From an uncultured Verrucomicrobiae bacterium (GTDB lineage: Bacteria > Verrucomicrobiota > Verrucomicrobiia > Chthoniobacterales > JAFAMB01), in NCBI GenBank assembly GCA_963837955.1, contig CAWIPH010000002.1:10966-74965 (forward strand): a DNA stretch of 64,000 bases. Reading direction: 5' to 3'. The first letter of the stretch is position 1; each line of letters begins with the position of its first letter. The notes under the pieces were generated by a model. That model saw only the letters and a list, made by a program, of their open reading frames with translations, searched no databases and was not told the origin of the DNA. Both the position numbers and the translations under genes were made by a program. Below, piece after piece: positions 6,610 through 48,126 of this stretch.

Positions 6610-7359
6610 CTACACCTGGGCTAAGCCGCCATCCACAAACAATTCCGTTCCGGTGATGTAGCTGCTGTCGTCGGATGCGAGAAACACCACGGCCTTGGCG
6701 ATCTCATCGGGTGTACCGAGCCTGCCAAGCGGAACAGTGTTGGAAATCATCTTCAAGCGTTCCTGGCCGATTTCCCCGGAAGCGAGCAGATTACTAAGTC
6801 CGGGCGTGTCGGTGGAGCCCGGGCTCACCGCGTTCACGCGAATGCGGCGGGCCTTTAAGTCCGTTGTCCATGTCCGCGCGAATGAACGCACGGCGGCTTT
6901 GGTGGCGCTATAAACACTATTCGACGAGAACCCTTTGCTGGCGACGATGGACGCATTCAGAATGACAGAGGCACCATCCGGCAGCAACGGAAGCGCCTTC
7001 TGCACCGTGAAAAGGAGGCCTTTTACATTGATGTCGAAGATCGAATCATAGAAATCCTCAGTTATCGTGCCAAAGGGGGCAAACGTCGCGACACCGGCAT
7101 TCGCGAACACAATATCGAGCTTGCCCTTCTCCTGCTTGATCTGGGCGAAGAGGCGATCAAGATCGCCAAGGTTCGACACGTCGCCTTGTACGCCGGTCAC
7201 ATTTCTCCCGATCTCCTTGACGGCCGCAGCCAACTCCGGATCGCGGCGCCCCGTTATGAAGACGTACGCGCCTTCGTTCACAAACTGCTTCGCCGTGGCG
7301 AGGCCAATGCCGCTGTTGCCACCCGTGATGAGGGCAATTTTTCCTTCAAGCTTATTCAT
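6610..7359 (-). CDS. SDR-family (short-chain dehydrogenase/reductase) oxidoreductase, copy 1
   Basis: It has the TGGNSGIG cofactor motif, NAG, and a S...YSATKAA catalytic block. It is 249 aa long. Confidence 0.9.
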
Positions 7360-7517: not shown

Positions 7518-8255
7518 TCAGATTTGCGCAACACCGCCATCCACAAACAATTCCGTTCCGGCGATGTAGCTGCTATCGCCGGATGCGAGAAACACCACGG
7601 CATTCGCGACCTCATCGGGTGTGCCGAATCTGCCGAGCGGAACACTGTTGGAAATGATCTTCATGCGTTCCTCGGCCCCCTCTATGGCATGCCACGGCGG
7701 CGTGTCGGTGAAGCCGGGGCTCACCGCGTTCACCCGAATGCGACGAGCCTTCAGGTCTGCTGTCCAGGTCCGCGCGAACGAACGAACAGCGGCTTTTGTG
7801 GCGCTATAGCCACTCCACTCGGAAAACCCTTTGCTGGCGACGATGGACGCATTCAGGATGATCGACCCACCATCCGGCATTAGCGGAAGTGCCTTTTGTA
7901 CCGTGAAAAGGAGGCCTTTCACGTTGCTGTTAAAGAGCGAGTCGTAATCCTCCTCAGTTATCTTCCCCAAGGGCGCGAGCTTCGCAAAACCGGCATTGGC
8001 GAACACCACATCGAGCCTGCCCTTCTCCTGTTTGATTTGTGCGAAGAGTCGATCAAGATCGCCAAGGTTCGAGACGTCGCCTTGTACGCCGGTCACATTT
8101 TTTCCGATCTCCTTAACGGCCGCAGCCAATTCCGGATCACGACGCCCCGTGATGAAGACGTATGCGCCTTCGTTCACAAACTGCTTCGCGGTGGCGAGGC
8201 CGATGCCGCTGTTGCCACCAGTAATCAGTGCAATTTTTCCTTCAAGCTTGTTCAT
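7518..8255 (-). CDS. SDR-family oxidoreductase, copy 2 (tandem paralog)
   Basis: It has the same motifs as copy 1 and is nearly identical to it over the first ~95 aa ([51 protein letters not shown]...). The start is set at the MNKLEGK methionine at 8255. Confidence 0.9.
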
Positions 8256-8282
8256 GTATTCTTCTCTTCTCATCAAAGGCTG

Positions 8283-11387: not shown

Positions 11388-11921
11388 CTAGGCTGAGAAT
11401 TTCCATTTGCCTCTTTTCTTCCGATAACTCTTAGGGCGCGAAGGCAGAATCGCAACCTGATCGGCGTCTTTGTAGAAGATCTGCGATTTCATCGGGTTCT
11501 TCTGCCGAATAACCCGAATGACATGACCTTCCCTGATCGCCCGGGCCACGATCGCTCGACCAACTTCTCGCCAACCTTTCTCGGTAAAAAAAAATCGAAC
11601 CCGCCGATTTTCGATTTCCGGAAACTTCACGTTCATGCCGGCCAGCCCAGCCGTCCACGCACCACGAAGTGGGCCAGGAGACCCCGGAATGAACTCCTGA
11701 CGCGAGAAGCTGAATGAGCCTTTCTTGGCGTTTGCGAGGATGCGGTAAATCATGCTATGAGGATTTCTGCCGGCATCATAAGTGACGCGCGTTCGCCCCT
11801 CGACTTGCGAAAGAATCTTATCGGGATTAGAAGACACCTCTCCCAGAGTTTGATCGCCAATGTCAGCGCGCGTGAAAGCGGCAACTGTCTTTTGCGATCG
11901 GAAGAGGCTTCGTCGCGACAC
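11388..11921 (-). CDS. Hypothetical protein (no family recognised)
   Basis: This is a 177-aa ORF convergent with the DUF1801 gene. It contains an in-frame A9/T9 homopolymer (11586-11594, coding RFFFT). Its first ~15 nt overlap tandem-repeat unit 1. Coding status is uncertain. Confidence 0.35.
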   Translation of the reverse strand: MSRRSLFRSQKTVAAFTRADIGDQTLGEVSSNPDKILSQVEGRTRVTYDAGRNPHSMIYRILANAKKGSFSFSRQEFIPGSPGPLRGAWTAGLAGMNVKFPEIENRRVRFFFTEKGWREVGRAIVARAIREGHVIRVIRQKNPMKSQIFYKDADQVAILPSRPKSYRKKRGKWKFSA

Positions 11922-12405
11922 GTGCGCCGCGCGGGCGCAACCTATTGATAAACCGAGGAATCGAGGCCAAGGTGCGCTGGCCTTGCTCTACCTTGGGCAG
12001 TTCCCGGGAGCCGCAAGCGGCTCCCCTCCGATGTCGGGGATTCCGGCTCAACTTAGCAAACATACAATATTTTTGTTCTTCCTTGCGATCTCTGCGTTCT
12101 TTTACGGCCATTCTCCTCTCGGAAAAAGCTCCGTCGGGACACGTGCGTCGCCCGGGCGCAACCCATCGATAGACCGAGGAATCGAGGCCAATAGTGCGCT
12201 GATCATGCTCAGCCTTGGGTAGTTCCCGGGAGCCGCACCTGTCCGACATAGCCTCGCTCTTCTCAATATCGTGGCAACAGCACTGACGCGAAGTCGGAAG
12301 CGGCTCCCCTCCGATGTCGGGGATTATGCCTCGATGTAGCTAACATAAATTCTTTCTGTTCTCTCTTTGTGGTCTCTGTGTTCTTTTGCGGCTATTTCTT
12401 CTCTT
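11907..12405. repeat. Two tandem copies of a ~221-bp composite repeat, the second with a ~60-bp insertion
   Basis: Unit 1 starts GCTTCGTCGCGACACGTGCGCCGCGCGGGCGCAACC at 11907. Unit 2 starts GCTCCGTCGGGACACGTGCGTCGCCCGGGCGCAACC at 12128. Both contain ACCGAGGAATCGAGGCCAA, GTTCCCGGGAGCCGCA, AAGCGGCTCCCCTCCGATGTCGGGGATT and a T-rich CTTTGCG-like tail. Unit 2 carries an insert containing CCTGTCCGACATAGC. Confidence 0.7.
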
Positions 12406-14822: not shown

Positions 14823-14830
14823 GGATGCCG

Positions 14831-14977
14831 ACGTAGCCTGATCCTCCTGGCTCAGAGAGCGTGTCAGTGATCAGTGATTGGTGAGAAGTGAATAGTGGAA
14901 CTTATCGGCAAAATCTTTTGCTAATCACTAATCACCAATCACTCACCCGCACCCTGAGGCTGGAGCATCAGGCTACT
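14831..14977. repeat. MITE-like palindromic repeat element (copy 1)
   Basis: Imperfect terminal inverted repeats are GACGTAGCCTGATCCTCCTGGCTCAGAG (left) and CCTGAGGCTGGAGCATCAGGCTAC (right). The inside holds GTGATTG-type heptamers facing CACTAAT/CACCAAT heptamers. The element ends 1 nt from the stop codon of the Na/Pi gene. Confidence 0.75.
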
Positions 14978-14978
14978 T

Positions 14979-16682
14979 TCAAACGGGCAGAGCCTCGGTG
15001 GAAGCTAACTTTGCCTCGTGATTCTCCTCAACTTCAGTCGAGCTCAAAAACTTCTGATCGATCTCCGAAAAATCGCCCCGTGGCTGATCTGACTTATTCG
15101 CATTTCGAACCAAAGCATAAGCGATCGACGTCAACTGGCTGTTGATCCGCCGCAGACTATCAAGCAAATCGAGAAAGTTAGAGTTCGTAGACTGGATTGG
15201 TTTCTCCAGGCGCTGCTTACGGAAGACTCGCAATTGATTGTTAATTTCCTCTTTTTCTCGGATTAATTGTACCGCGAAGTGCTGGTCCCGTGACATAACG
15301 AGCATGGCGACTTTCGCGATGCGTTTCAGCGTGCGCGAGTAAAGAGTCTCCAGCTCTCGGCGATCTTCCGGCGAAAGTTCATGCGTCGATCGAGCTTCGC
15401 GTAATGCGGCTTCAGAAAGGTCCCGCCGGATAAGCGTGCCGACGGTGCACAGATCTTGGGCGTAGTCCAAAACAATGAGCTTCCAGTCAATATCCTCTTC
15501 GCTCAGATTCTCGTCGCTCACCTGGCTGAGATAGTCTTTAAGACCTTCCTCTGTCTGCTCGACCCGCCTTTGCTGTTCTTCGATCTTGCTTACCAGATGA
15601 ACATTCTTTGCTGAAAAGATTGCCCGGACCGTGCGTAGCATCAGCTTTAATTGATCCATTAACCGCAGTTCCTCGCGAGCGGCATGGTTGAGGGCCAACG
15701 ACGGCGACTGCAGCAGAAGCGGATCAAGATAGCTGTCGGTCTCGCCGGAGTCGTCGGAATTTGGGGATTCAACCAGGAAAACGATAATTCGGTAGATCAG
15801 CGAGAGCACAGGTAAAGCTGCGAGGCCGAGCACCAGATTGAACAACGTATTCAAATTCGCAGCCTGTCGATCGATCTCGCCCGGAAGAAGGTGGATGATG
15901 AAAGTAAACAAACGGGAACTGGCCACGAGCAAGACGGCTGCTCCGCAGCCCTTAATCAGAAGGCTGCCGATCGCGAGCCGGCGGCCCTCGATGCTGCCCC
16001 AGCCCGCAATCATCATGGTGAGCGTGATTCCGAGATTTGCGCCCAGCACCCATGGCACCATCGTCGCACCTGGAAGCAATCCGGATTGGGCTAGTCCAAT
16101 GCCCAATCCGATGGAAGCCGTCGAACTTTGAAGGATAACGGTCAGCAGTGCTGTCGCCAGAAACACTAGCAGGGGATAGTGTTCAGCGACGCCGAAGACC
16201 AGCTTCAGATCTGGATTGGCAGCGGCGACGCTTCCCGCTTTTCCGATCATTTCCATCGCTAAGAAAATCAGACCGATCCCCAGCAGCATTTGGCCGACTC
16301 CGCGAAAAATCGCGCGGTTCGAAAATAGGAATCCGATTCCTCCGGCGACAAGAAAGACACCGGCGTAGTCCTGTAAGCGAAGCGCCAGTAACTGGACCGA
16401 AACCGTGATACCGACGTTTGCTCCTAAAACGATGGCTAACATGCGCTCAGCCGTTAGCGTCGTTTCATTCAACATCTGCACCGACAACATCGCTATGGCG
16501 CTCGACGATGGCGCGACGCAGCCAGCCACTGCACCGGCGAAGAACGCTTGATAACGATTCTTTGTCATCTGTTGCAGCCAATCGACTAGTCGATTGCCTA
16601 ACAGACGATCCAGGCCTTTGCGTACGTAGCGCATGCCCAGAAGTACAAGGATGACACCAGTCGCGATATTCAGGAACGGCAT
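14979..16682 (-). CDS. Na+/phosphate cotransporter family protein (NptA/YjbB-like) with PhoU-like C-terminal region
   Basis: The N-terminus MPFLNIATGVILVLLGMRYVRKGLDRLLGNRL...SSSAIAMLSV and a repeated membrane half (TVILQSSTASIGLGIGLA) match Na_Pi_cotrans repeats. The soluble helical C-terminal ~220 aa resembles a PhoU-like region. Confidence 0.85.
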   Translation of the reverse strand: MPFLNIATGVILVLLGMRYVRKGLDRLLGNRLVDWLQQMTKNRYQAFFAGAVAGCVAPSSSAIAMLSVQMLNETTLTAERMLAIVLGANVGITVSVQLLALRLQDYAGVFLVAGGIGFLFSNRAIFRGVGQMLLGIGLIFLAMEMIGKAGSVAAANPDLKLVFGVAEHYPLLVFLATALLTVILQSSTASIGLGIGLAQSGLLPGATMVPWVLGANLGITLTMMIAGWGSIEGRRLAIGSLLIKGCGAAVLLVASSRLFTFIIHLLPGEIDRQAANLNTLFNLVLGLAALPVLSLIYRIIVFLVESPNSDDSGETDSYLDPLLLQSPSLALNHAAREELRLMDQLKLMLRTVRAIFSAKNVHLVSKIEEQQRRVEQTEEGLKDYLSQVSDENLSEEDIDWKLIVLDYAQDLCTVGTLIRRDLSEAALREARSTHELSPEDRRELETLYSRTLKRIAKVAMLVMSRDQHFAVQLIREKEEINNQLRVFRKQRLEKPIQSTNSNFLDLLDSLRRINSQLTSIAYALVRNANKSDQPRGDFSEIDQKFLSSTEVEENHEAKLASTEALPV

Positions 16683-16837: not shown

Positions 16838-17009
16838 GACGTAGCCTGATCCTCCTGGCTCAGAGGTACATCGTGTGAGAGGTGAGAAGTGATTGGTGAA
16901 TAGTGGATGCATATCGGCAAGTCCTCGGTAGAAATCCCCATCACCCTTTCACTAATCACTAATCACCAATCACGCGCTGTACCCCTGAGCCAGGAGGATC
17001 AGGCTACGT
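16838..17009. repeat. MITE-like palindromic repeat element (copy 2, near-perfect TIRs)
   Basis: GACGTAGCCTGATCCTCCTGGCTCAGAGG (16838-16866) faces CCCTGAGCCAGGAGGATCAGGCTACGT (16983-17009). The internal GTGAGAAGTGATTGGTGAATAGTGG faces CACTAATCACTAATCACCAATCAC. It has the same orientation as copy 1. Confidence 0.8.
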
Positions 17010-23296: not shown

Positions 23297-23481
23297 GACG
23301 TAGCTTGATCCTCCTGGCTCAGGGGGGCGCAGAGTGTGATTGGTGGGGCCTATCGGCAAATCTTCGGCAAAAATCCCCCCACCTCCCTCTCACTAATCAC
23401 TAATTTAGTAAGCGGTCGGCGTACCTGGCGTATCCGATCTCCGGCATCGGCTCCCCGCTTACTAATCTAATCACTGATCAC
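23297..23481. repeat. Truncated/rearranged copy of the MITE-like element
   Basis: The left TIR GACGTAGCTTGATCCTCCTGGCTCAGGGG is present, with GTGATTGG and CACTAATCACTAAT modules. No matching right TIR is found. It contains an extra hairpin, TTAGTAAGCGG...CCGCTTACTAA. Confidence 0.65.
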
Positions 23482-23532: not shown

Positions 23533-24390
23533 CTACAGCCGTTCCAAATAGACTCGGTACGGCGAATCGGGTAGGCTGGAAACCAGCTCCCTGAATTGTG
23601 CTCGATTCAAGAAGCCCATTTCCAGGGCGACCTGTTCGATGCAGCCAATCTTCAATCCCTGCCGCTTTTCGATGGTTGCAATGTAATTGCCGGCCTCCAG
23701 CAGACTCTCGTGCGTTCCGGTATCCAACCAGGCTACACCTTGTTCGAGAATTTTGACGGTCAACTCGCCTCCGAACAGATATGCACGCGCCAGATCGGTG
23801 ATCTCGAGCTCGCCCCGATCAGAAGGTTCCAAATTTTCAGCAATTTCGACGCAATGCTGATCGAACAAGTACAGACCAGCTACCGCATAGTTGCTCTTCG
23901 GATGCTTCGGTTTTTCCTGCAGTCCCGTGGCTTGCCCGAACCTATCAAATTCAACCACGCCATAGCGTTCGGGATCGCTGACCGGATAGGCGAATATTGC
24001 GCCACCCTTGTCGATTCGTAGCGCTTCGCGCAAGAAGTCCAGGTTCCCGTGAAAGATGTTATCACCCAGGATCAGCGCAATCCCTTGATCACCAATAAAA
24101 TCGCTCCCGACGATAAACGCATGTGCAATACCGGCAGGTTTCGCCTGTTCAGCATAGGCAATGTTTAGTCCAAGCTTTGATCCATCTCCGAACAGCTCTC
24201 GAAACCTCGGCAAATCTCGTGGCGTCGAGATGAGAAGGATGTCGCGGATGCCCGCTTGCATCAATGTGGCCAAAGGATAGAAGACCAACGGTTTATCGTA
24301 AACGGGAAGAAGCTGTTTGCAGACGACGTCGGTGAGAGGATGGAGCCGCGTACCGGCGCCCCCCGCTAGGACGATCCCTTTAGTAATCAT
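23533..24390 (-). CDS. rfbA: Glucose-1-phosphate thymidylyltransferase
   Basis: MITKGIVLAGGAGTRLHPLTDVVCKQLLPVYDKPLVFYPLATLMQAGIRDILLISTP is the canonical RmlA/RfbA N-terminus. The protein is 285 aa. Confidence 0.9.
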   Translation of the reverse strand: MITKGIVLAGGAGTRLHPLTDVVCKQLLPVYDKPLVFYPLATLMQAGIRDILLISTPRDLPRFRELFGDGSKLGLNIAYAEQAKPAGIAHAFIVGSDFIGDQGIALILGDNIFHGNLDFLREALRIDKGGAIFAYPVSDPERYGVVEFDRFGQATGLQEKPKHPKSNYAVAGLYLFDQHCVEIAENLEPSDRGELEITDLARAYLFGGELTVKILEQGVAWLDTGTHESLLEAGNYIATIEKRQGLKIGCIEQVALEMGFLNRAQFRELVSSLPDSPYRVYLERL

Positions 24391-24404
24391 AGTTGGACCG
24401 AAGA

Positions 24405-24782
24405 GAAACTCACGCCAAGCGGCGAAAGAATCTCACGCAAAGACCCGGAGAATCTCACGCAAAGACGCAAAGACGCAAAGTTTTGAAAGGGAGTCCGGGC
24501 CGTCGAAAGCCACAGTGATTTGTGAGAAGTGATTGGTGATGGGGTGAAAATCCTCGCAAAGGTAGCGTAGCCTGATGCTCCGCCTCAGGAGATTGGCGCG
24601 CCTTGGATTCCTGAGGCGGAGCATCAGGCTACTCTGGCTTCGTTCCGCCCATAAAACGGCATCGACCGCATTGTCCGCTCAAACTTTGCGTCTTTGCGTC
24701 TTTGCGTGAGATTCGAATAAGGACCGGCGGGAGCCGATCCCTACCGGTCTTGGCGTGAGATTCTTCTTTGCGTGAGATCTCA
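24405..24782. repeat. ~380-bp nested palindrome built from 8-mer, 7-mer and TIR-like modules
   Basis: A perfect 31-bp inverted repeat pairs GAATCTCACGCAAAGACGCAAAGACGCAAAG (24450-24480) with CTTTGCGTCTTTGCGTCTTTGCGTGAGATTC (24684-24714). The central perfect hairpin pairs GTAGCCTGATGCTCCGCCTCAGGA (24567-24590) with TCCTGAGGCGGAGCATCAGGCTAC (24609-24632). GTGATTTGTGAGAAGTGATTGGTGA lies in between, and additional CTCACGC copies lie at both outer edges. Confidence 0.85.
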
Positions 24783-25226
24783 AATCTCGAAGGCCATGAC
24801 GGGACGCTCCCGGCTCTCATCGAGCATATCCTGGATCGATTTATTGCCGAACAGCTCCCGGAGCATTTCCCGGGCTTGCCGGATTACCGGTCGAAGGGGG
24901 CAGCGGAGCGGATCCGGACATCCGCATCGATCGGCCGATCTATCCAAAGCACAAGGCAGAGGAGCGATTTCGCCATCCAACAGTTCGATGATCTGCAACA
25001 TGGTCAATTCTGAGGCGCGTTTGCGCAGGGTATAGCCCCCGCCAACGCCACGTTTGCTTGAGAGAATGCCGTGGTTACGCAGGGCTAACAGAATTTGCTC
25101 GAGAAACTTAACCGGGATGTTACCTCGCTCGGAGAGCTCTTGAATCTGGTGAATTTTGCCGGGGGGATCTTGAGCGATAATGAATAAAGCGCGTAAAGCA
25201 TACTCCGCTTTCCGAGAAATCCGCAT
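24780..25226 (-). CDS. Rrf2-family transcriptional regulator (Cys-rich, possibly Fe-S binding)
   Basis: MRISRKAEYALRALFIIA...IPVKFLEQILLALRNHGILSSKRGVGGGYTL is the Rrf2 wHTH. It has a downstream Cys cluster, PCALDRSADRCGCPDPLRCP. Confidence 0.85.
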   Translation of the reverse strand: MRISRKAEYALRALFIIAQDPPGKIHQIQELSERGNIPVKFLEQILLALRNHGILSSKRGVGGGYTLRKRASELTMLQIIELLDGEIAPLPCALDRSADRCGCPDPLRCPLRPVIRQAREMLRELFGNKSIQDMLDESRERPVMAFEI

Positions 25227-25229
25227 AAT

Positions 25230-25520
25230 CTAATCTCTTCCGTTTTGAGCAGCCAAAGGTTCGCGGCCGTCAAATAGTCGCTCGTAGGTGGCAGCAATGA
25301 CCCGCCAATCGTAATTGGCGCTGACGCTGACGCGAGCCGAATCACTCATCCGCTGCCATCGAGCAGGCGACTTCCAAAGCCGCACGATTTCTGCTGCGAT
25401 CATTTCGCAATTCATCAATCGAGAAGAGTAAACCATTTTCTTGATCTAATACCAGATCAACATTGCCTGGAATACGGCTGGCGACAACCGGTAGACCAGA
25501 CGCAAGCGCCTCAAGTAGAA
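25230..25520 (-). pseudogene. C-terminal remnant of a GT4-type glycosyltransferase (5' part missing, internal frameshift)
   Basis: ORF 25342..25629 reads ...ILLEALASGLPVVASRIPGNVDLVLDQENGLLF, the GT-B C-domain EX7E region. ORF 25230..25436, in another frame, continues with ...IVRLWKSPARWQRMSDSARVSVSANYDWRVIAATYERLF. Upstream of about 25520 the reading frame is replaced by the GGGAACGCC repeat array. Confidence 0.6.
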
Positions 25521-25600
25521 TAACGCCGGGAACGCCGGGAACGCCGGGAACGCCGTTATCGCCGGGAACGCGAAAACCGTGAGAAGTGATTGGTAAGACG
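25519..25600. repeat. 9-bp tandem array (GGGAACGCC) plus heptamer module
   Basis: GGGAACGCC occurs 3 times (25528-25554), followed by GTTATCGCC and GGGAACGCG and then GTGAGAAGTGATTGGTAAG. Confidence 0.85.
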
Positions 25601-25677
25601 TGCGAGCCAAAACACCGCGGCTCTTGCACCTTTAGCCTGAATATCCCGTGTTCGGTGTTCGATCTGCAATTTGCTAT

Positions 25678-29940: not shown

Positions 29941-30136
29941 GCCCATACCTGTGGCGGGGGGAAATAGCAAATAGCAGATAGCAGGGGGGAGAGAACGCCG
30001 GGAGCGCACGGGAACGCCGGGAACGCCGGGAACGCCAAAGCCAAACACCAAACGCCAAACGCCAAACGCCGCGATATCGGCAGCTAATCGGCCGTTTAAC
30101 CTGTATTCCTTTGCGCCTTTGCGTCTTTGCGTGAGG
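29941..30136. repeat. Intergenic spacer composed almost entirely of concatenated short tandem-repeat modules
   Basis: AAATAGC/AGATAGC occurs 3 times (29962-29984) and G(G/A)GAACGCC-type 9-mers occur 5 times (29991-30036). CCAAAC(G/A) occurs 4 times (30041-30068) and CTTTGCG(N) 8-mers occur 3 times (30108-30131). The array ends in GTGAGG directly at the stop codon of the next gene. Confidence 0.9.
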
Positions 30137-31183
30137 TTATTGTCGCTTCCAGGCTTCGAAGATCTGCAGAAACGTCTCTTCCAGTCCCTTGGTGATATCC
30201 CAATTCGGGTAATGCGAACGCATCTTCGATAAATCGGAGATATAACAGATGTGATCACCCCGCCGATTCTGATCGATGTATTCGTACGACATCTGTTTGC
30301 CTGAGATTTGCGCGATCAGATCGAACGCTTCCAGGATCGAAATCGAGTTGCGGCGACCGCCACCGAGATTATAGACCTCACCAATGCGGGGTTGTTGGAT
30401 GAATTCATTCATGAACCGAGCCACATCCAAAGAATGGATGTTGTCGCGGACCTGTTTCCCTTCATAACCGAAGATCTTGTAGGTTTTTCCTTCGACGTTG
30501 CATTTAATCAAGTAGCTGAGGAAACCGTGGAGCTCGACCCCGCAATGGTTCGGCCCCGTGAGGCAACCTCCCCGCAAACAACAGGTCGCCATCTGAAAAT
30601 AGCGGCCATATTCTTGGACCATCACATCGGCTGCTACTTTGGAGGCTCCGAAGACGGAATGCAGACAGTGATCGATCGGAAAACTCTCCCTGATTCCATC
30701 GGCGTATTCTGCGTCGGCATAATCCCAACGGGTTTTCTTTTCGACCAGGTTGAGCCGATTCGGGCCATCGCCGTAAACTTTATTGGTAGACATATGAACG
30801 AACGGCGCCTCGGGACACCATTGCCGGGCCGCCTCGAGCAAATTGAGTGTACCGACTGCGTTCACATCGAAATCGTCGAAAGGACGCGACGCAGCAAGAT
30901 CATGGCTTGGCTGAGCGGCGGTGTGGATGACAGCGTCCGGCCGGATCTTTTGAACCAGTTGGAGCACAGCGTTGCGGTCACGGATATCAACTTGATGATG
31001 ATGAAAACATTCAAAAGTCGTCCGGAGTCGCTGCGTGTTCCAGGAAGTGTCCCCCGGCGGACCAAAGAATTCGGCTCGCAGATTATTCTCGATCCCATGG
31101 ATCTCGTTCCCTTCGCGAGCGAAGAAAGCGACTACCTCGCTGCCGATTAGACCGCTGGATCCGGTTACAAGTAGTTTTTTCAC
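30137..31183 (-). CDS. NAD-dependent nucleotide-sugar epimerase/dehydratase (extended SDR)
   Basis: It has [18 protein letters not shown] (GxxGxxG), the catalytic YGASKVAAD (YxxxK), and a length of 348 aa. Overall it resembles the CDP-paratose-2-epimerase-like subgroup. Confidence 0.85.
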
Positions 31184-36411: not shown

Positions 36412-37612
36412 AATCAAGGCCATAATCTTCCGGCACTCTTGCGAAGGGAGACGCAATTTGAGCCGGGTCACCGAGATGGTGTATTGGCCGGTGCAGAACA
36501 TCGTTGTCTGGGGGTTTTTCACAATTTATCTTACCCGGGACAACCACCTGCAGCCGGGAATAGTTAGTTTTCTCTTAGGTGCGGCCATTCTGTGGGGGAT
36601 GTTCTATGCATTCCAGCGTGATCTGGCGGCGGGCTTCCTCGAAGAACTCTGGTCTCGAAACCTCATCAACTTATTCTCTACGCCGCTGAGCATCTCCGAA
36701 TATTTGACCGGCCTCATCATTGTCAATCTGGTCAGAGCCATGGTGGGAGTTCTGGCAGCGGGCCTAACTGCGTGGCTCTGCTTCGGCTATGAAATCTCCT
36801 CGAAACTGTTAGCAGTTATTCCCTTTATGTTGAGTTTGACTCTCTTCGCGCTCGCTGTCGGTGTGATAATTACCGGTCTGATTGTCAGGTATACCACCAA
36901 GATCCAGACGCTGGCCTGGAGCTTTGCTGGCTTACTGATGCCGTTCTCGTGCGTATTCTATCCTTTTAGCTCTCTTCCCAAATGTTTGCGTCCGGTCGCC
37001 TGGGCTCTTCCCACTACTCATGCTTTCGAAGGGATGAGGCAGGCAATCGCCGGAGGAGGCTTTGCGCTGCCGCATTTCGAGTGGGGGATTATGCTAAATG
37101 CGTTCTATCTGGTGTTGGCTGTCCTGGTGTTTCGCCGGATGTTTGAATCTGCACGTGCCCGAGGTCTGCTTAGTAAAGCTAGAGTAGGGAACGTTGGGAA
37201 CGCCGGGAACGCACGGGAACGCCGACAACGCCGACAACGCCGACAACGCCGACAACGCCGACAACGCCGACAACGCCGAGAACGCCGAGAACGCCGAGAA
37301 CGCACGGGAACGCCGGCTTGTCCGACGACCGTGTCCGACGAAGCTCCTCCGCTACATCGGCGACGTTCCAAGGATCAGCGAAGTCGGAAGCCTGCCGGAG
37401 TTTCAAACGACGGAGCGAAGTTGGAGAGCGCATTTTTCGGTAGTGCCAGAAATGTGTTGCCAATCGCGAGCTCCTCTGTAAAGAATCGCCTCTGCTGCGC
37501 AACCCTCCGCGCGCCGGCAATCGGTTTCTCGGGGAATCGGCTATGGACCAGTCCATCATATTGCACAGCCATGTGCCAAAGACGGCGGGCACCAGCGTTT
37601 CGGCGCATCTAG
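36398..37612 (+). CDS. ABC-2 type transporter permease; the conserved part ends at about 37180 and the ORF then reads through a 9-bp repeat array
   Basis: About 260 aa are polytopic membrane protein (...WALPTTHAFEGMRQAI...LVLAVLVFRRMFESARARGLLSKA). This is followed by GNVGNAGNARE(RRQ)x6(RRE)x3 and ~95 aa of Arg-rich, non-protein-like sequence. That tail overlaps the next gene start at 37543. Confidence 0.7.
   Translation: MKLNRIKAIIFRHSCEGRRNLSRVTEMVYWPVQNIVVWGFFTIYLTRDNHLQPGIVSFLLGAAILWGMFYAFQRDLAAGFLEELWSRNLINLFSTPLSISEYLTGLIIVNLVRAMVGVLAAGLTAWLCFGYEISSKLLAVIPFMLSLTLFALAVGVIITGLIVRYTTKIQTLAWSFAGLLMPFSCVFYPFSSLPKCLRPVAWALPTTHAFEGMRQAIAGGGFALPHFEWGIMLNAFYLVLAVLVFRRMFESARARGLLSKARVGNVGNAGNARERRQRRQRRQRRQRRQRRQRRERRERRERTGTPACPTTVSDEAPPLHRRRSKDQRSRKPAGVSNDGAKLESAFFGSARNVLPIASSSVKNRLCCATLRAPAIGFSGNRLWTSPSYCTAMCQRRRAPAFRRI
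37187..37314. repeat. 9-bp tandem repeat array
   Basis: The order is GGGAACGTT, GGGAACGCC, GGGAACGCAC, GGGAACGCC, GACAACGCC x6 (37224-37277), GAGAACGCC x2, GAGAACGCAC, GGGAACGCC. It belongs to the same unit family as 25528-25572 and 29991-30036. Confidence 0.95.
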
Positions 37613-38387: not shown

Positions 38388-38397
38388 TCCGAGGATA

Positions 38398-38715
38398 AAA
38401 TCTCACGCAAAGTCGCAAAGGCGCAAAGAATGGGAGGCGGAATCCAGAATGTTTGGCACAGAAGTAAACGGAGATAACGGTTCGGCTGAGCCGTCGGGCG
38501 GCTCCACTCGAAGCCAATCTATCTCCCCGGTCACCTTCAATTCAAAATTCGTCTTTGCGCGAGGCTTTAACGGATTTCCGTACTGCGCGTTCCCTCGCAC
38601 TTCTCACCAATCACCTCTCACCAATCACATTGGCTTCGACCGGAGCTCAGCCGCGCCTTTGCGTCTTTGCGTGAGATTTTCTAAGTCCGTTCTCCTTTGC
38701 GCCTTTGCGTGAGGC
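38398..38715. repeat. Modular inverted-repeat element filling the intergenic spacer
   Basis: AAATCTCACGCAAAGTCGCAAAGGCGCAAAG (38398-38428) faces CCTTTGCGTCTTTGCGTGAGATTT (38655-38678) and CCTTTGCGCCTTTGCGTGAGGC (38694-38715). The heptamer module CACTTCTCACCAATCACCTCTCACCAATCAC lies at 38598-38628. Confidence 0.85.
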
Positions 38716-38716
38716 T

Positions 38717-39805
38717 CTAACGGTTCACCGGCTCTGCGCTACTCAGATGTTCTTTGAGCACACTCGTTGACACGCTGTCAGCTCGACTTACTTCCCCGAT
38801 GTTCCTGGTTTCGCGAACGTTGTAGGTGCTTTTACCCTGCGACTCATAAAACGTCCGCATGAGCATTTCGGCCAGGAGCCCGAGCAGGATACACATCATC
38901 GCGATCATGAACGTCATCACGACGATCAAAGGTAACGGCGTTGTGATGAAGTAGGTATTGTGAAACAATTTCAAGTAAAGCATCCACAAGAAGGCACAGC
39001 CGCTCACTGCCAGGCTGAATACGCCGCAACCACCAAAGAGATACATCGGTTTACTGGCAGCCCGATCGAGGAACTTTACGACTAGCAGATCTAGCAGGAC
39101 CTTTAAGACCCGCTCGAATCCATACTTGGACTCTCCCGTCCGGCGCGGGTGATGGTTAACCACCAGCTCGGTAATCTTTGCTCCGTGCCAGGAGGCGTAG
39201 ATCGGCAAAAAACGGTGCATCTCACCGTATAGGCGGATTCCATCGACTACCTGTCTTTTGTACGCTTTGAGCGAGCAGCCGAAGTCATGCAGCCGTACTC
39301 CAGACACCGCTGAAATCAGCCGGTTAGCCAGGATGCTCGGGATGTTGCGCTGGATGACATTATCCTGACGGTCTTTTCGCCAACCCGAAACAACGTCGTA
39401 GCCCTGTGCCAAAAGTTCTAACATCCGCGAAATGTCGGCCGGATCATTTTGCCCATCCCCATCCACCGGAATAATGACGTCACCCTTAGCGAAATCGAAA
39501 CCTGCCATCATTGCGGCGGTCTGGCCGAAGTTTCGTTTGAAGTGGATCACCCGGATCCGCTGATCCGAATCGGCCAATCGATCCAGGATTTCCGCGGAAT
39601 TATCCGTGCTACCGTCGTTGATGAAGATAATTTCCCAAGGCTTCCCCAGCCGCGTCAGCTCCTGTCTAACTCCCTGGCTGAGGTCGACCAGGGCCTCCTC
39701 TTCGTTGTAAACGGGGACAACAATCGAAATCAACACCGTGGCCAGCTTCGTAAGAGAACCGTAAATGTCAACCAACTGGACGCACGCCTTCCCGAATTTC
39801 TGCAA
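38717..39805 (-). CDS. GT2 polyprenol-phosphate sugar synthase-type glycosyltransferase (ArnC/GtrB/DPM1-like)
   Basis: ISIVVPVYNEEEAL...IIFINDGSTDNSAEIL...IRVIHFKRNFGQTAAMMAGFDFAKGDVIIPVDGDGQNDP is the characteristic GT2 block. It has two C-terminal TM helices. The track start is a TTG, and the GTG at 39736 (VLISIVVP) is an alternative. Confidence 0.85.
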   Translation of the reverse strand: MQKFGKACVQLVDIYGSLTKLATVLISIVVPVYNEEEALVDLSQGVRQELTRLGKPWEIIFINDGSTDNSAEILDRLADSDQRIRVIHFKRNFGQTAAMMAGFDFAKGDVIIPVDGDGQNDPADISRMLELLAQGYDVVSGWRKDRQDNVIQRNIPSILANRLISAVSGVRLHDFGCSLKAYKRQVVDGIRLYGEMHRFLPIYASWHGAKITELVVNHHPRRTGESKYGFERVLKVLLDLLVVKFLDRAASKPMYLFGGCGVFSLAVSGCAFLWMLYLKLFHNTYFITTPLPLIVVMTFMIAMMCILLGLLAEMLMRTFYESQGKSTYNVRETRNIGEVSRADSVSTSVLKEHLSSAEPVNR

Positions 39806-46721: not shown

Positions 46722-48126
46722 ATGGAGATACTTTCTAGAATCGCTAAGTTACCCGCCGCTCAGAAGCTTGGTGAATTGATCGACCGCTTTGTCGCGCACT
46801 TCCTGCGCCGAATCGACGATCGGTTGCGCCGAATCGATGATCGGCTGAATCGAATCGATGATCGGCTGCGGCCAATTGACGATCGACAGGATGCGGTAGA
46901 AAGGCTGGTCGTTTCGACTTTGTTGCCGCCCAAAGAGGCAGGTTATGACGTCATAGTGACTGCGAGCGAGGTGAGTGAGAAGCACGGTGCGGGTCTCTTG
47001 TTACGTCGAGCCTTCGATACTTGTCCTCAGATTCTCTCGGTTCGTAGCGCTGATGATTTCAAGGGTGAAAAATCATTCGGAGAGGAAAGCTTCCTGGTGT
47101 CTCACGGGTGGTCATCTCGTCCGAATTGGTTCGCCCATACGCTTCAACAATTGAGAGGAAGAGTGGCGCGTCGGGTGATTTGTGTACCCTATCAGCTGGA
47201 TGAGTTAAAAACCGCGATCACCCTGAAAGAAATCTATGGAGCTCCTATTTGTCTCTGGTTGATGGATGATAAGAGCGTCACGAATCATCAGATTCCATAC
47301 GAGCTGATGAGAGAGTTTCTGGGAAAGTGTTCGTTGCGGTTGACGACCCACGCCGAGCTGCGAGACGCGTATGAACGCGCATTTGGGTTCAAATTCTACC
47401 TTTTTCCGGCTGTGGTCTCCGAAAACTTGATCGTGAAAGAAATCAGAACTCCGCGAGGGGAATTTATGGCGGAAAAGAGAGGGGCGATCTTTGGGAGCAT
47501 TTCGAGCCGGAAATTGGCAGATAAGCTCATGCAGACGATCAAGGTGTCGGGACTGCAGTGTGACTGGTTCGAGAACAATCACCTGCCGAGCTTTGAATTG
47601 AGCGATAGTGAGTTGACGGAAGCAGGGGTCACTCGCCAAGGCATTATTCCGGAGGAAGAGCTTCCCGGCCTGCTCGGACGGTATCCTTACCTTATTGTGC
47701 CCACAGGGGACTTGGATCCCGATGATCCGGAAACGCCCTTGGCTCGGTTGAACTTGCCGGGTCGGATCCTTTTTGCGATGGCGACCTCAAACACACCTTT
47801 CATTGTGCTGGGGCACCCGGATACGCCCGCTGCTCGCTTCGTTAGAGCATTTTCAAGTCGGCTTGCGGTCAGACTATGAGCCCGACGGTTTTTCCGCTGC
47901 GGTCCGGAGCATTGTCGAAGAGAAGACTCAATATGAGATGCGATCGAATGCGGTTGGCGTTGCGCCACTCCTTAGCAGCAAGGGCGCCAGCGACTGGGTC
48001 TTCCGTTCCCTGGAAATGGGCAAGGCTTGCGACGATCGCTTCGAGCGACTAATGCCTTCAGTGGTTGGGGATAAATATTTTTCCCCGTCGATTGAAGGCT
48101 ATTTTTCGCCGGCGATCGGTGGATGA
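46722..48126 (+). pseudogene. Paralog B of the triplicated uncharacterised family, with a 1-nt frameshift at about 47844
   Basis: ORF 46722..47879 carries EVSEKHGAGLLLR, LMDDKSV and LNLPGRILFAMATSNTPFIVLGHPDTPAARFV, then goes out of frame. ORF 47773..48126 continues EHFQVGLRSDYEPDG...ASDWVFRSLEMGKACDDRFERLMP. It is collinear with paralogs A and C. Confidence 0.65.
46806..46889 (+). repeat. 21-bp x4 in-frame tandem repeat encoding heptads RRIDDRL/RRIDDRL/NRIDDRL/RPIDDRQ
   Basis: The four units are CGCCGAATCGACGATCGGTTG, CGCCGAATCGATGATCGGCTG, AATCGAATCGATGATCGGCTG and CGGCCAATTGACGATCGACAG. Confidence 0.95.

Follow-up and report, generated by a model that had tools for sequence, protein, structure and literature searches.

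The 64-kb stretch of DNA analyzed here (hereinafter the window) raises the question of whether the inverted repeats that fill the 389-nt spacer (24391-24779) between the gene of an Rrf2-family regulator and an rfbA-like gene constitute a control element of these genes or an accumulation of mobile repeats. As initially annotated, both flanking genes are located on the same (minus) strand, with the spacer between them; for members of the protein cluster of the rfbA-like gene, JGI likewise uses the name glucose-1-phosphate thymidylyltransferase. The relevant features are the following (repeats have no strand assigned).

23533-24390, minus strand: rfbA-like glucose-1-phosphate thymidylyltransferase (NTP_transferase) gene, the downstream neighbor (Pfam PF00483, E = 2e-64)
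24404-24419, no strand: outermost left arm, degenerate module AGAAACTCACGCCAAG, pairs with 24749-24764 (16 nt, 94%)
24426-24450, no strand: second-layer left arm AAGAATCTCACGCAAAGACCCGGAG, inverted repeat with 24741-24765 (25 nt, 88%)
24450-24483, no strand: third-layer left arm GAATCTCACGCAAAG(ACGCAAAG)2TTT, an octamer-array arm, part of a perfect 34-nt inverted repeat
24514-24540, no strand: heptamer module GTGATTT/GTGAGAA/GTGATTG, common to the copies at 14867-14899, 16875-16907 and 38598-38628
24567-24632, no strand: inner hairpin, two inverted GTAG-tagged REP-like units (GTAG-CCTGA-loop-TCAGG), perfect 24-nt arms, 18-nt spacer
24681-24714, no strand: third-layer right arm, reverse complement of 24450-24483, variable among the contigs L001-L003, L278 and L279
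24715-24748, no strand: local imperfect hairpin (GGACCGG...CCGGTC) located between the right arms of the second and third layers, a stem of its own in the RNA fold
24741-24765, no strand: second-layer right arm, inverted repeat with 24426-24450
24765-24779, no strand: outermost right arm TCTTTGCGTGAGATC, immediately adjacent to the stop codon of Rrf2 (24780-24782)
24780-25226, minus strand: Rrf2-family regulator gene, the upstream neighbor (Pfam PF02082, E = 1e-32), stop codon at 24780-24782
38397-38680, no strand: second full octamer-arm element, lacking the GTAG doublet, 28-nt arms at 96%, 228 nt apart

The initial annotation interpreted the spacer as a multi-layer perfect palindrome of about 380 bp. 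Instead, there are four nested layers (16 nt at 94%, 25 nt at 88%, 34 nt at 100% and 24 nt at 100%), two of which are imperfect, and about half of the bases are covered; given the lack of complementarity between the interlayer segments 24484-24566 and 24633-24680, the region consists of nested repeats rather than one perfect palindrome. The outer repeat, reported as a perfect 31-bp inverted repeat, is indeed perfect but extends over 34 bp (24450-24483 and 24681-24714, 100% complementary, 197 nt apart), and the inner hairpin with its perfect 24-bp stem (24567-24590 and 24609-24632, identical in reverse complement, 18-nt loop) is exactly as described. The CTCACGC copies noted at the outer edges are also found, in the form CTCACGC(A/C)AAG, at 24409, 24432, 24749 and 24766. 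The module formed by CTCACGC(A/C)AAG and NCGCAAAG octamers has three copies toward rfbA and three copies in inverted orientation toward Rrf2; in the outermost layer, the segment 24765-24779 is an alternative right-hand partner, and an inverted repeat is also formed with 24766-24776. The innermost octamer-arm pair delimits the segment 24450-24714, with the heptamer module and the GTAG doublet in its interior, and only low-complexity ORFs are present between the 34-nt arms. The argument that such a palindrome is normally unstable in bacteria is overstated for a structure with 197 nt between the long arms and an inner stem of no more than 24 bp; SbcCD targets long palindromes with short centers.

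The same modules are found elsewhere in the window. The motif CTCACGCAAAG, that is, CTCACGC(A/C)AAG type, has 11 matches in the window compared to 1.5 expected, and the octamer-array arm type recurs at 38397-38428 and 30109-30138, with single octamer arms at 38687-38716 and 30109-30138. The two full copies, 24440-24725 and 38397-38680, have their arms and a heptamer module (GTGATTG/GTGAGAA) in common; the remaining interior is different, and the inner hairpin is present only in the Rrf2-rfbA copy. The GTAG/heptamer elements, at 14831-14979 and 16839-17009 and, in part, at 23298-23404, are all intergenic and about 150-175 bp long when full; their ends are ACGTAGCCTGATCCTCCTGGCTCAG, connected by GTGATTG/GTGAGAA heptamer arrays. 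The GTAG tag is found also at 14833, 16841 and 23300; altogether, there are seven GTAG units in 64 kb, all of them intergenic. The arms of the inner hairpin are, as first proposed, the terminal repeat of this other palindromic family of the window (14831-14979, 16839-17009); a single 1-nt indel separates the inner hairpin arm from the right end of the 14824-14979 copy. The terminal arm of the GTAG family has no match in the viral contigs, in the stretches retrieved by the scan of other genomes described below, or in L001-L003.

The inner hairpin is a GTAG-tagged REP doublet that resembles a REPIN, given that its GTAG tag and doublet layout fit the published GTAG-tagged REPs, which include those of Verrucomicrobia (Di Nocera et al. 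2013, PMC3733652). The unit GTAG-CCTGA-TGCTCCGCC-TCAGG (24567-24590) belongs to a pair of inverted units that are 100% complementary and are separated by a short, 18-nt spacer, and the hairpin is extragenic, with several copies of the units in the window. However, the stem of a unit in the inner hairpin is only 5 bp long, and the window also contains larger copies in which heptamer arrays connect units separated by 125 nt. Furthermore, REPINs are said to be REP doublets mobilized by RAYT tyrosine transposases, as reportedly described by Bertels and Rainey in 2011, whereas no RAYT gene is found among the scanned window ORFs.

The element also resembles MITEs and other mosaic repeats (Correia/NEMIS, Nezha, RUP, BOX, BIME), the hairpins of which can alter the stability of neighboring mRNAs. 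It is small and non-coding, it is present in several intergenic copies with a nested, mosaic organization and strong predicted RNA hairpins, and it has terminal inverted repeats (34-nt perfect arms around 197 nt; 28-nt arms at 96% in the second copy). It differs from a MITE in that target-site duplications are absent from the window element and the scanned window ORFs include no classical transposase of a cognate IS; the arms are tandem octamer arrays that match the flanks of GxxExxY genes, and the gene-carrying counterparts encode a PD-(D/E)XK protein of the GxxExxY family, which, to our knowledge, is not a known transposase.

A scan of one genome per bacterial or archaeal species (596 Gb) for the exact arm CTCACGCAAAGNCGCAAAG identifies at least 119 stretches in more than 12 phyla, compared to a chance expectation of about 17 (an estimate for 18 fixed bases in 596 Gb). 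Among the matches listed, the hosts include Acidobacteriota, Planctomycetota, Verrucomicrobiota, Cyanobacteria, Chloroflexota and Bacteroidota, as well as Desulfobacterota, Nitrospirota, Proteobacteria, Leptospira and others. Also among the matches listed, 82 of the 151 arms have an inward-facing partner within 780 nt, mostly at 12-80 nt, and form gene-less hairpins, and at seven CTCACGCAAAGNCGCAAAG loci, a GxxExxY gene is located between or beside the arms. The GxxExxY proteins encoded at these seven loci are 49-70% identical to one another across seven phyla and match TIGR04256 and PF13366.

The decisive evidence of the link between the arms and GxxExxY comes from the converse test, in which the sole criterion for choosing 80 metagenome loci was similarity to the GxxExxY protein (occurrence of the peptide GPGL[LF]E[ST][VI]Y, with confirmation by tblastn). 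Among the 75 loci with both flanks, 45 contain a significant inverted repeat between the 5' and 3' flanks, with arms that are nearly always CTCACGCAAAG(NCGCAAAG)n or near variants thereof (e.g., CTCGCGCAGAG and CTCACACAAAG). Under a stricter motif definition, tandem CGCAAAG-type octamers are found within 160 nt on at least one side of the gene in 69 of the 75 loci and on both sides, in an inverted arrangement, in 38 of the 75; none of the 99 control windows located 700 nt away contain tandem octamers. In 85% of the comparisons, pairing between the two arms of the same cassette is better than pairing with arms taken from other cassettes. The purine-rich arm is usually located 5' of the GxxExxY gene (25 vs 5 cases), often running into the ribosome-binding site, and the start of an arm lies within a few bases of a host stop codon in 13 of 140 cases, compared to 1.1% of random positions. 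On the sense strand of the cassette arms, G.U mismatches are in slight excess over A.C mismatches (47 vs 31), a difference too small to discriminate between constraint on the RNA and constraint on the DNA.

The spacer element resembles these cassettes (TIGR04256/PF13366, PDDEXK_3) in having the same arms, CTCACGCAAAG(NCGCAAAG)n facing its reverse complement, and in its placement, which in the cassettes is often right after the host stop codon. The difference is that the window copies contain neither a GxxExxY gene nor a remnant of one. Within the window, the two single arms start right after stop codons, those of an epimerase gene (TAA, 30137-30139) and of a GT2 gene (TAG, 38717-38719), a layout that mirrors the arm abutting the Rrf2 stop codon; similarly tight stop-codon junctions are observed at GxxExxY cassettes, e.g., in L136 and L138. 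In L034, a Spartobacteria MAG, a gene-less hairpin adjoins a GxxExxY gene that is bounded by the same arms, and a truncated GxxExxY remnant is found between the arms in L104. Cassette mobility is no more than suggested by the occurrence of near-identical cassettes in L183 and L192, in different contexts, and by a nested 200-nt insert that distinguishes L210 from L207.

The arms are not exclusive to GxxExxY. No GxxExxY gene is found in the 63 viral-contig stretches that contain the exact arm, where the arms enclose other small ORFs, and the arms that were picked by sequence are mostly gene-less. Given this distribution, the arms may represent a hairpin module of general occurrence that is not derived from GxxExxY cassettes. 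A search of the 64-kb window (for GxxExxY in six frames, with tblastn and the family HMM) detects no GxxExxY, four-helix-bundle or GIY-YIG gene or remnant thereof; given that there is no detectable coding remnant inside them, the window copies may never have carried a GxxExxY gene.

Taken together, these observations are best compatible with a reading that we hold with reasonable, rather than high, confidence, namely, that palindromic repeat modules of a selfish, non-coding kind have piled up in the spacer, which is not a purpose-built control element. Judging from its arms, the innermost pair (24450-24714) appears to be a gene-less copy of the cassette type in which the arms normally enclose a GxxExxY gene. 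Nested selfish palindromic repeats are an ordinary kind of object, and the unusual aspect here is the association of the outer arms with GxxExxY. Under the pile-up reading, the modules would have arrived by insertion or gene conversion and would be decaying more or less neutrally; the GTAG units would have been mobilized in trans, a RAYT encoded elsewhere being the candidate enzyme, and the octamer arms would also have been mobilized in trans, possibly by the GxxExxY nuclease or by host recombination. Because target-site duplications are found neither at any layer, nor at the flanks of 38397-38680, nor at the short hairpins in other genomes, and no empty-versus-filled pair at a near-identical sequence is found among the strains compared, insertion is something that we only infer. 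None of the 20 window ORFs scanned encodes a transposase or RAYT and, given that no GxxExxY, four-helix-bundle, RAYT or transposase gene is found in the window, mobilization in trans is speculative.

Comparison of strains and relatives sheds light on the history of the spacer. The sources named for several Rrf2 homologs assign the organism to the Verrucomicrobia, in or near the Chthoniobacterales. In the relative represented by L125 (Rrf2 70% identical), the Rrf2 gene is followed by an 83-nt spacer and then by rfbA, and this spacer contains only a mini hairpin (TCGCAAA-tgc-TTTTGCGA) and CTGACAA heptamers. The relatives with 72-77% identical Rrf2 that were fetched have other neighbor genes and no octamer arms next to Rrf2; among the strains compared, the element is carried only by those with at least 93% identical Rrf2. 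The filling of the spacer is thus lineage-specific, which bears out the suggestion that it formed recently. The short-read metagenome contigs L001-L003, which encode an identical Rrf2 protein, run into the Rrf2-side arms and end there, so that the palindrome explains short-read assembly breaks at this site; the contigs L278 and L279, which come from other samples, extend through the entire spacer into both genes and contain the same layers.

Among these sister strains, the aligned spacer is 96% identical, compared to about 99% for the Rrf2 coding DNA, with module-sized indels of 7, 10 and 17 nt and a block of 126-134 nt. This block is located beside the GTAG doublet in three of the four strains (L002, 1509-1642; L278, ~1205-1330; L279, ~405-538); the window lacks it at this site and has no copy of it elsewhere, Rfam yields no match, and its first ~45 nt are completely different between L278 and L279. 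The 34-nt arms are perfect only in the window strain: L278 has 2 mismatches, whereas in L279 one of the arms is one octamer shorter and mismatches are present as well; the octamer copy number varies among the strains. Conversely, the two outer layers are perfectly paired in L279 and contain one mismatch each in the window, where the CAAAG and CCAAG variants are swapped between modules, which accounts for the mismatches. The three full spacers (window, L278 and L279) do not differ in the inner hairpin or its loop, which could reflect constraint rather than youth, and the local hairpin 24715-24748 is retained in L001-L003, L278 and L279. The proposal that the palindrome is kept perfect by selection is not supported, given the mismatched or unequal arms of the sister strains, the 126-134-nt indel and the lower identity of the spacer compared to the Rrf2 coding sequence; the pattern is that of a young structure drifting by slippage and conversion. 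The filling is best read as strain-variable and junk-like, not as a tuned switch. In yet another lineage, L123, a different large palindromic repeat (GGAGTGCGTGCGACTTGTCGCCGCTTT ... AAAGCGGCGACAAGTCGCGCGCACTCC, 975-1170) follows the Rrf2 gene; given this difference, unrelated palindromic elements occupy the post-Rrf2 position in different lineages.

An alternative that we consider unlikely is that the element is an evolved cis-regulatory RNA, kept by selection, that serves as an RNase III site, attenuator or insulator uncoupling rfbA from the upstream glycan genes. Folding of the 389-nt spacer, as initially suggested, yields -206 kcal/mol for RNA (z = -16) and -122 kcal/mol for DNA (z = -14), none of 100 shuffled sequences folds as stably, and the RNA fold is very stable in L279 as well. 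The element is located between same-strand genes that are adjacent in L125. The conservation of the inner hairpin and of the local hairpin 24715-24748 among the strains, the slight excess of G.U over A.C mismatches in the GxxExxY cassettes and the polarity of the arms relative to the GxxExxY gene also speak for this alternative. However, the same modules are found at unrelated loci of the window and in many phyla, and for this reason, the element is not specific to rfbA; the L125 spacer lacks it altogether, and the sister strains have imperfect or unequal arms and differ by the presence or absence of the 126-134-nt block. A search of 24391-24779 for a canonical U-tract terminator (a short GC-rich stem with a U-tract, either strand) detects none, no sigma-70 promoter is found in the spacer, and there is no Rfam match at the gathering score, with only spurious miRNA-hairpin matches below it. 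The location of the element at the entrance of the glycan locus, as originally proposed, is incorrect: the same-strand run comprises the epimerase, AsnB, GT4, GT fragment, Rrf2 and rfbA genes, so that the glycosyltransferase, AsnB and epimerase genes are upstream of Rrf2 and rfbA is the last glycan gene. Under the pile-up reading, co-transcription of Rrf2 and rfbA, as suggested by the 83-nt spacer in L125, would yield an RNA with a long duplex (~30 to 60 bp), which would probably be cut by RNase III, for which a long RNA duplex is a plausible substrate, or would impede readthrough, in either case as a side-effect. Most likely, the palindrome is junk DNA that the cell tolerates, with possible incidental cleavage or blockage of the transcript; for the Rrf2-rfbA locus itself, it matters little.

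It is also improbable that the element grew in place, from a seed hairpin downstream of Rrf2 that expanded by octamer slippage and hairpin-templated copying, with no mobile insertion. The L125 spacer already contains the mini hairpin and the heptamers at the same place, the octamer copy number differs among the strains, and the CAAAG/CCAAG variants are swapped between adjacent modules across strains, which suggests conversion. The difficulty with this scenario is that the arms, the heptamer module and the GTAG units are found nearly verbatim at distant sites of the window and the arms are common to other phyla; growth in place cannot explain such distant sharing without sequence transfer.

We consider it very unlikely that the three-plus-three motifs of 15-17 nt, considered as spaced by 22-23 nt, are an array of binding sites, for Rrf2 itself or for a transposase (as in Tn7 or Mu ends). 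The left copies are 23 and 22 nt apart, that is, about two helical turns, and adjoin a regulator gene, but the right copies are 49 and 17 nt apart, L278 lacks one of the copies, and across many phyla, the motif accompanies GxxExxY genes, with no link to Rrf2. An Rrf2 operator array in particular is rejected given the wide spread of the motif and its absence next to Rrf2 in relatives. Finally, an assembly artefact (a fold-back or collapsed join), which the initial annotation named as a possible refutation and to which the ends of all three short-read contigs L001-L003 inside the palindrome might point, has a negligible probability given that two independent assemblies (L278 and L279) span the entire spacer together with both genes and show the same architecture, and that the flanks and the inner segments are asymmetric, unlike in a fold-back.

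Beyond this locus, the pattern of the arms and GxxExxY genes matters more than the Rrf2-rfbA spacer itself. GxxExxY (PDDEXK_3) is a large family of unknown function, with many copies in Verrucomicrobia, Planctomycetes, Cyanobacteria, Bacteroidetes, Acidobacteria and others, and about 9 in 10 of the sampled genes of this family are located between or beside a conserved octamer-array inverted repeat. The published survey of PD-(D/E)XK proteins likewise lists PDDEXK_3 as a family of unknown function, with multiple transfers between divisions. No description of the octamer arms was found in the literature on GxxExxY, PDDEXK_3, PF13366, TIGR04256 and flanking repeats, so the link appears to be undescribed. 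It leads to the testable hypothesis that GxxExxY is the cargo or the engine of a small mobile or processed cassette, and the arm signature provides a DNA handle for finding gene-less derivatives. Tentatively, and with distinctly less confidence than for the pile-up reading of the spacer, we propose that the CTCACGCAAAG(NCGCAAAG)n inverted arms define an unrecognized, horizontally spreading cassette family present in many phyla and in viral contigs. The typical cargo would be the GxxExxY PD-(D/E)XK nuclease; propagation would be driven by this nuclease, acting on the arm hairpin or cruciform, or, by analogy with the intervening sequences of rRNA, by the action of RNase III on the RNA stem. The gene-less hairpins, including the Rrf2-rfbA copy, would be non-autonomous derivatives comparable to MITEs or REPINs.

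In the intervening sequences of 23S rRNA, RNase III cuts the long stem formed by the flanking inverted repeats. The element resembles these sequences (four-helix-bundle, TIGR02436) in that a small gene, or none, is located in the loop of a long stem, and differs from them in its location outside an rRNA gene and in its repeat units. In the glycan cluster of the relatives, small four-helix-bundle genes of TIGR02436, the '23S rRNA intervening sequence protein' family, are inserted between AsnB and its neighbors (L125, 1581-1913; L134, 1118-1510), and the one in L125 is flanked by inverted CTCGAAC/TCCGAAC arrays, which suggests that small cassettes of this kind generally possess arms built from short tandem repeats. 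An integron attC site was rejected as a candidate: the ends of the arms are CTCACGC and GCGTGAG, with no GTTRRRY core, where R''/R' RYYYAAC ... GTTRRRY would be expected. There is also some resemblance to the cyanobacterial STRRs, which are intergenic arrays of tandem 7-9-nt units, and Nostocales genomes carry the same octamer arms; STRRs, however, are known by their description as simple arrays, not as paired inverted arms around cassettes. In Dolichospermum sp. FACHB-1091 (L059, 5509-5932), six direct copies of the octamer arm with an exact 81-nt period are located within a tandem repeat, so that the module is arranged differently there.

Tandem repeats in the window have periods of 7, 8 and 9. 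Tandem nonamers (GGGAACGCC, CGACAACGC) and heptamers (AACGCCA, AAATAGC) are found in or beside glycan genes, at 25522-25571, 29993-30036, 37187-37316, 30031-30070 and 29962-29983. The first of these arrays is located at the 5' edge of a truncated glycosyltransferase ORF (25230-25629; translation PGVPGVPGV), which looks like a gene remnant and is truncated in L001-L003 as well. A tandem duplication of a non-coding unit of ~220-280 nt (11898-12117 and 12119-12400, 80-89% identical), located upstream of a BlaR1-like gene, has no Rfam match, and both duplicates end in a pyrimidine-rich array that resembles a variant octamer arm (CTTGCGATCTCTGCGTTC, CTTTGTGGTCTCTGTGTTC). The window further contains two adjacent paralogous genes (6610-7359 and 7518-8276; 300 nt at 81%, 148 nt at 89%) and a 21-nt tandem repeat in four copies (46803-46885).
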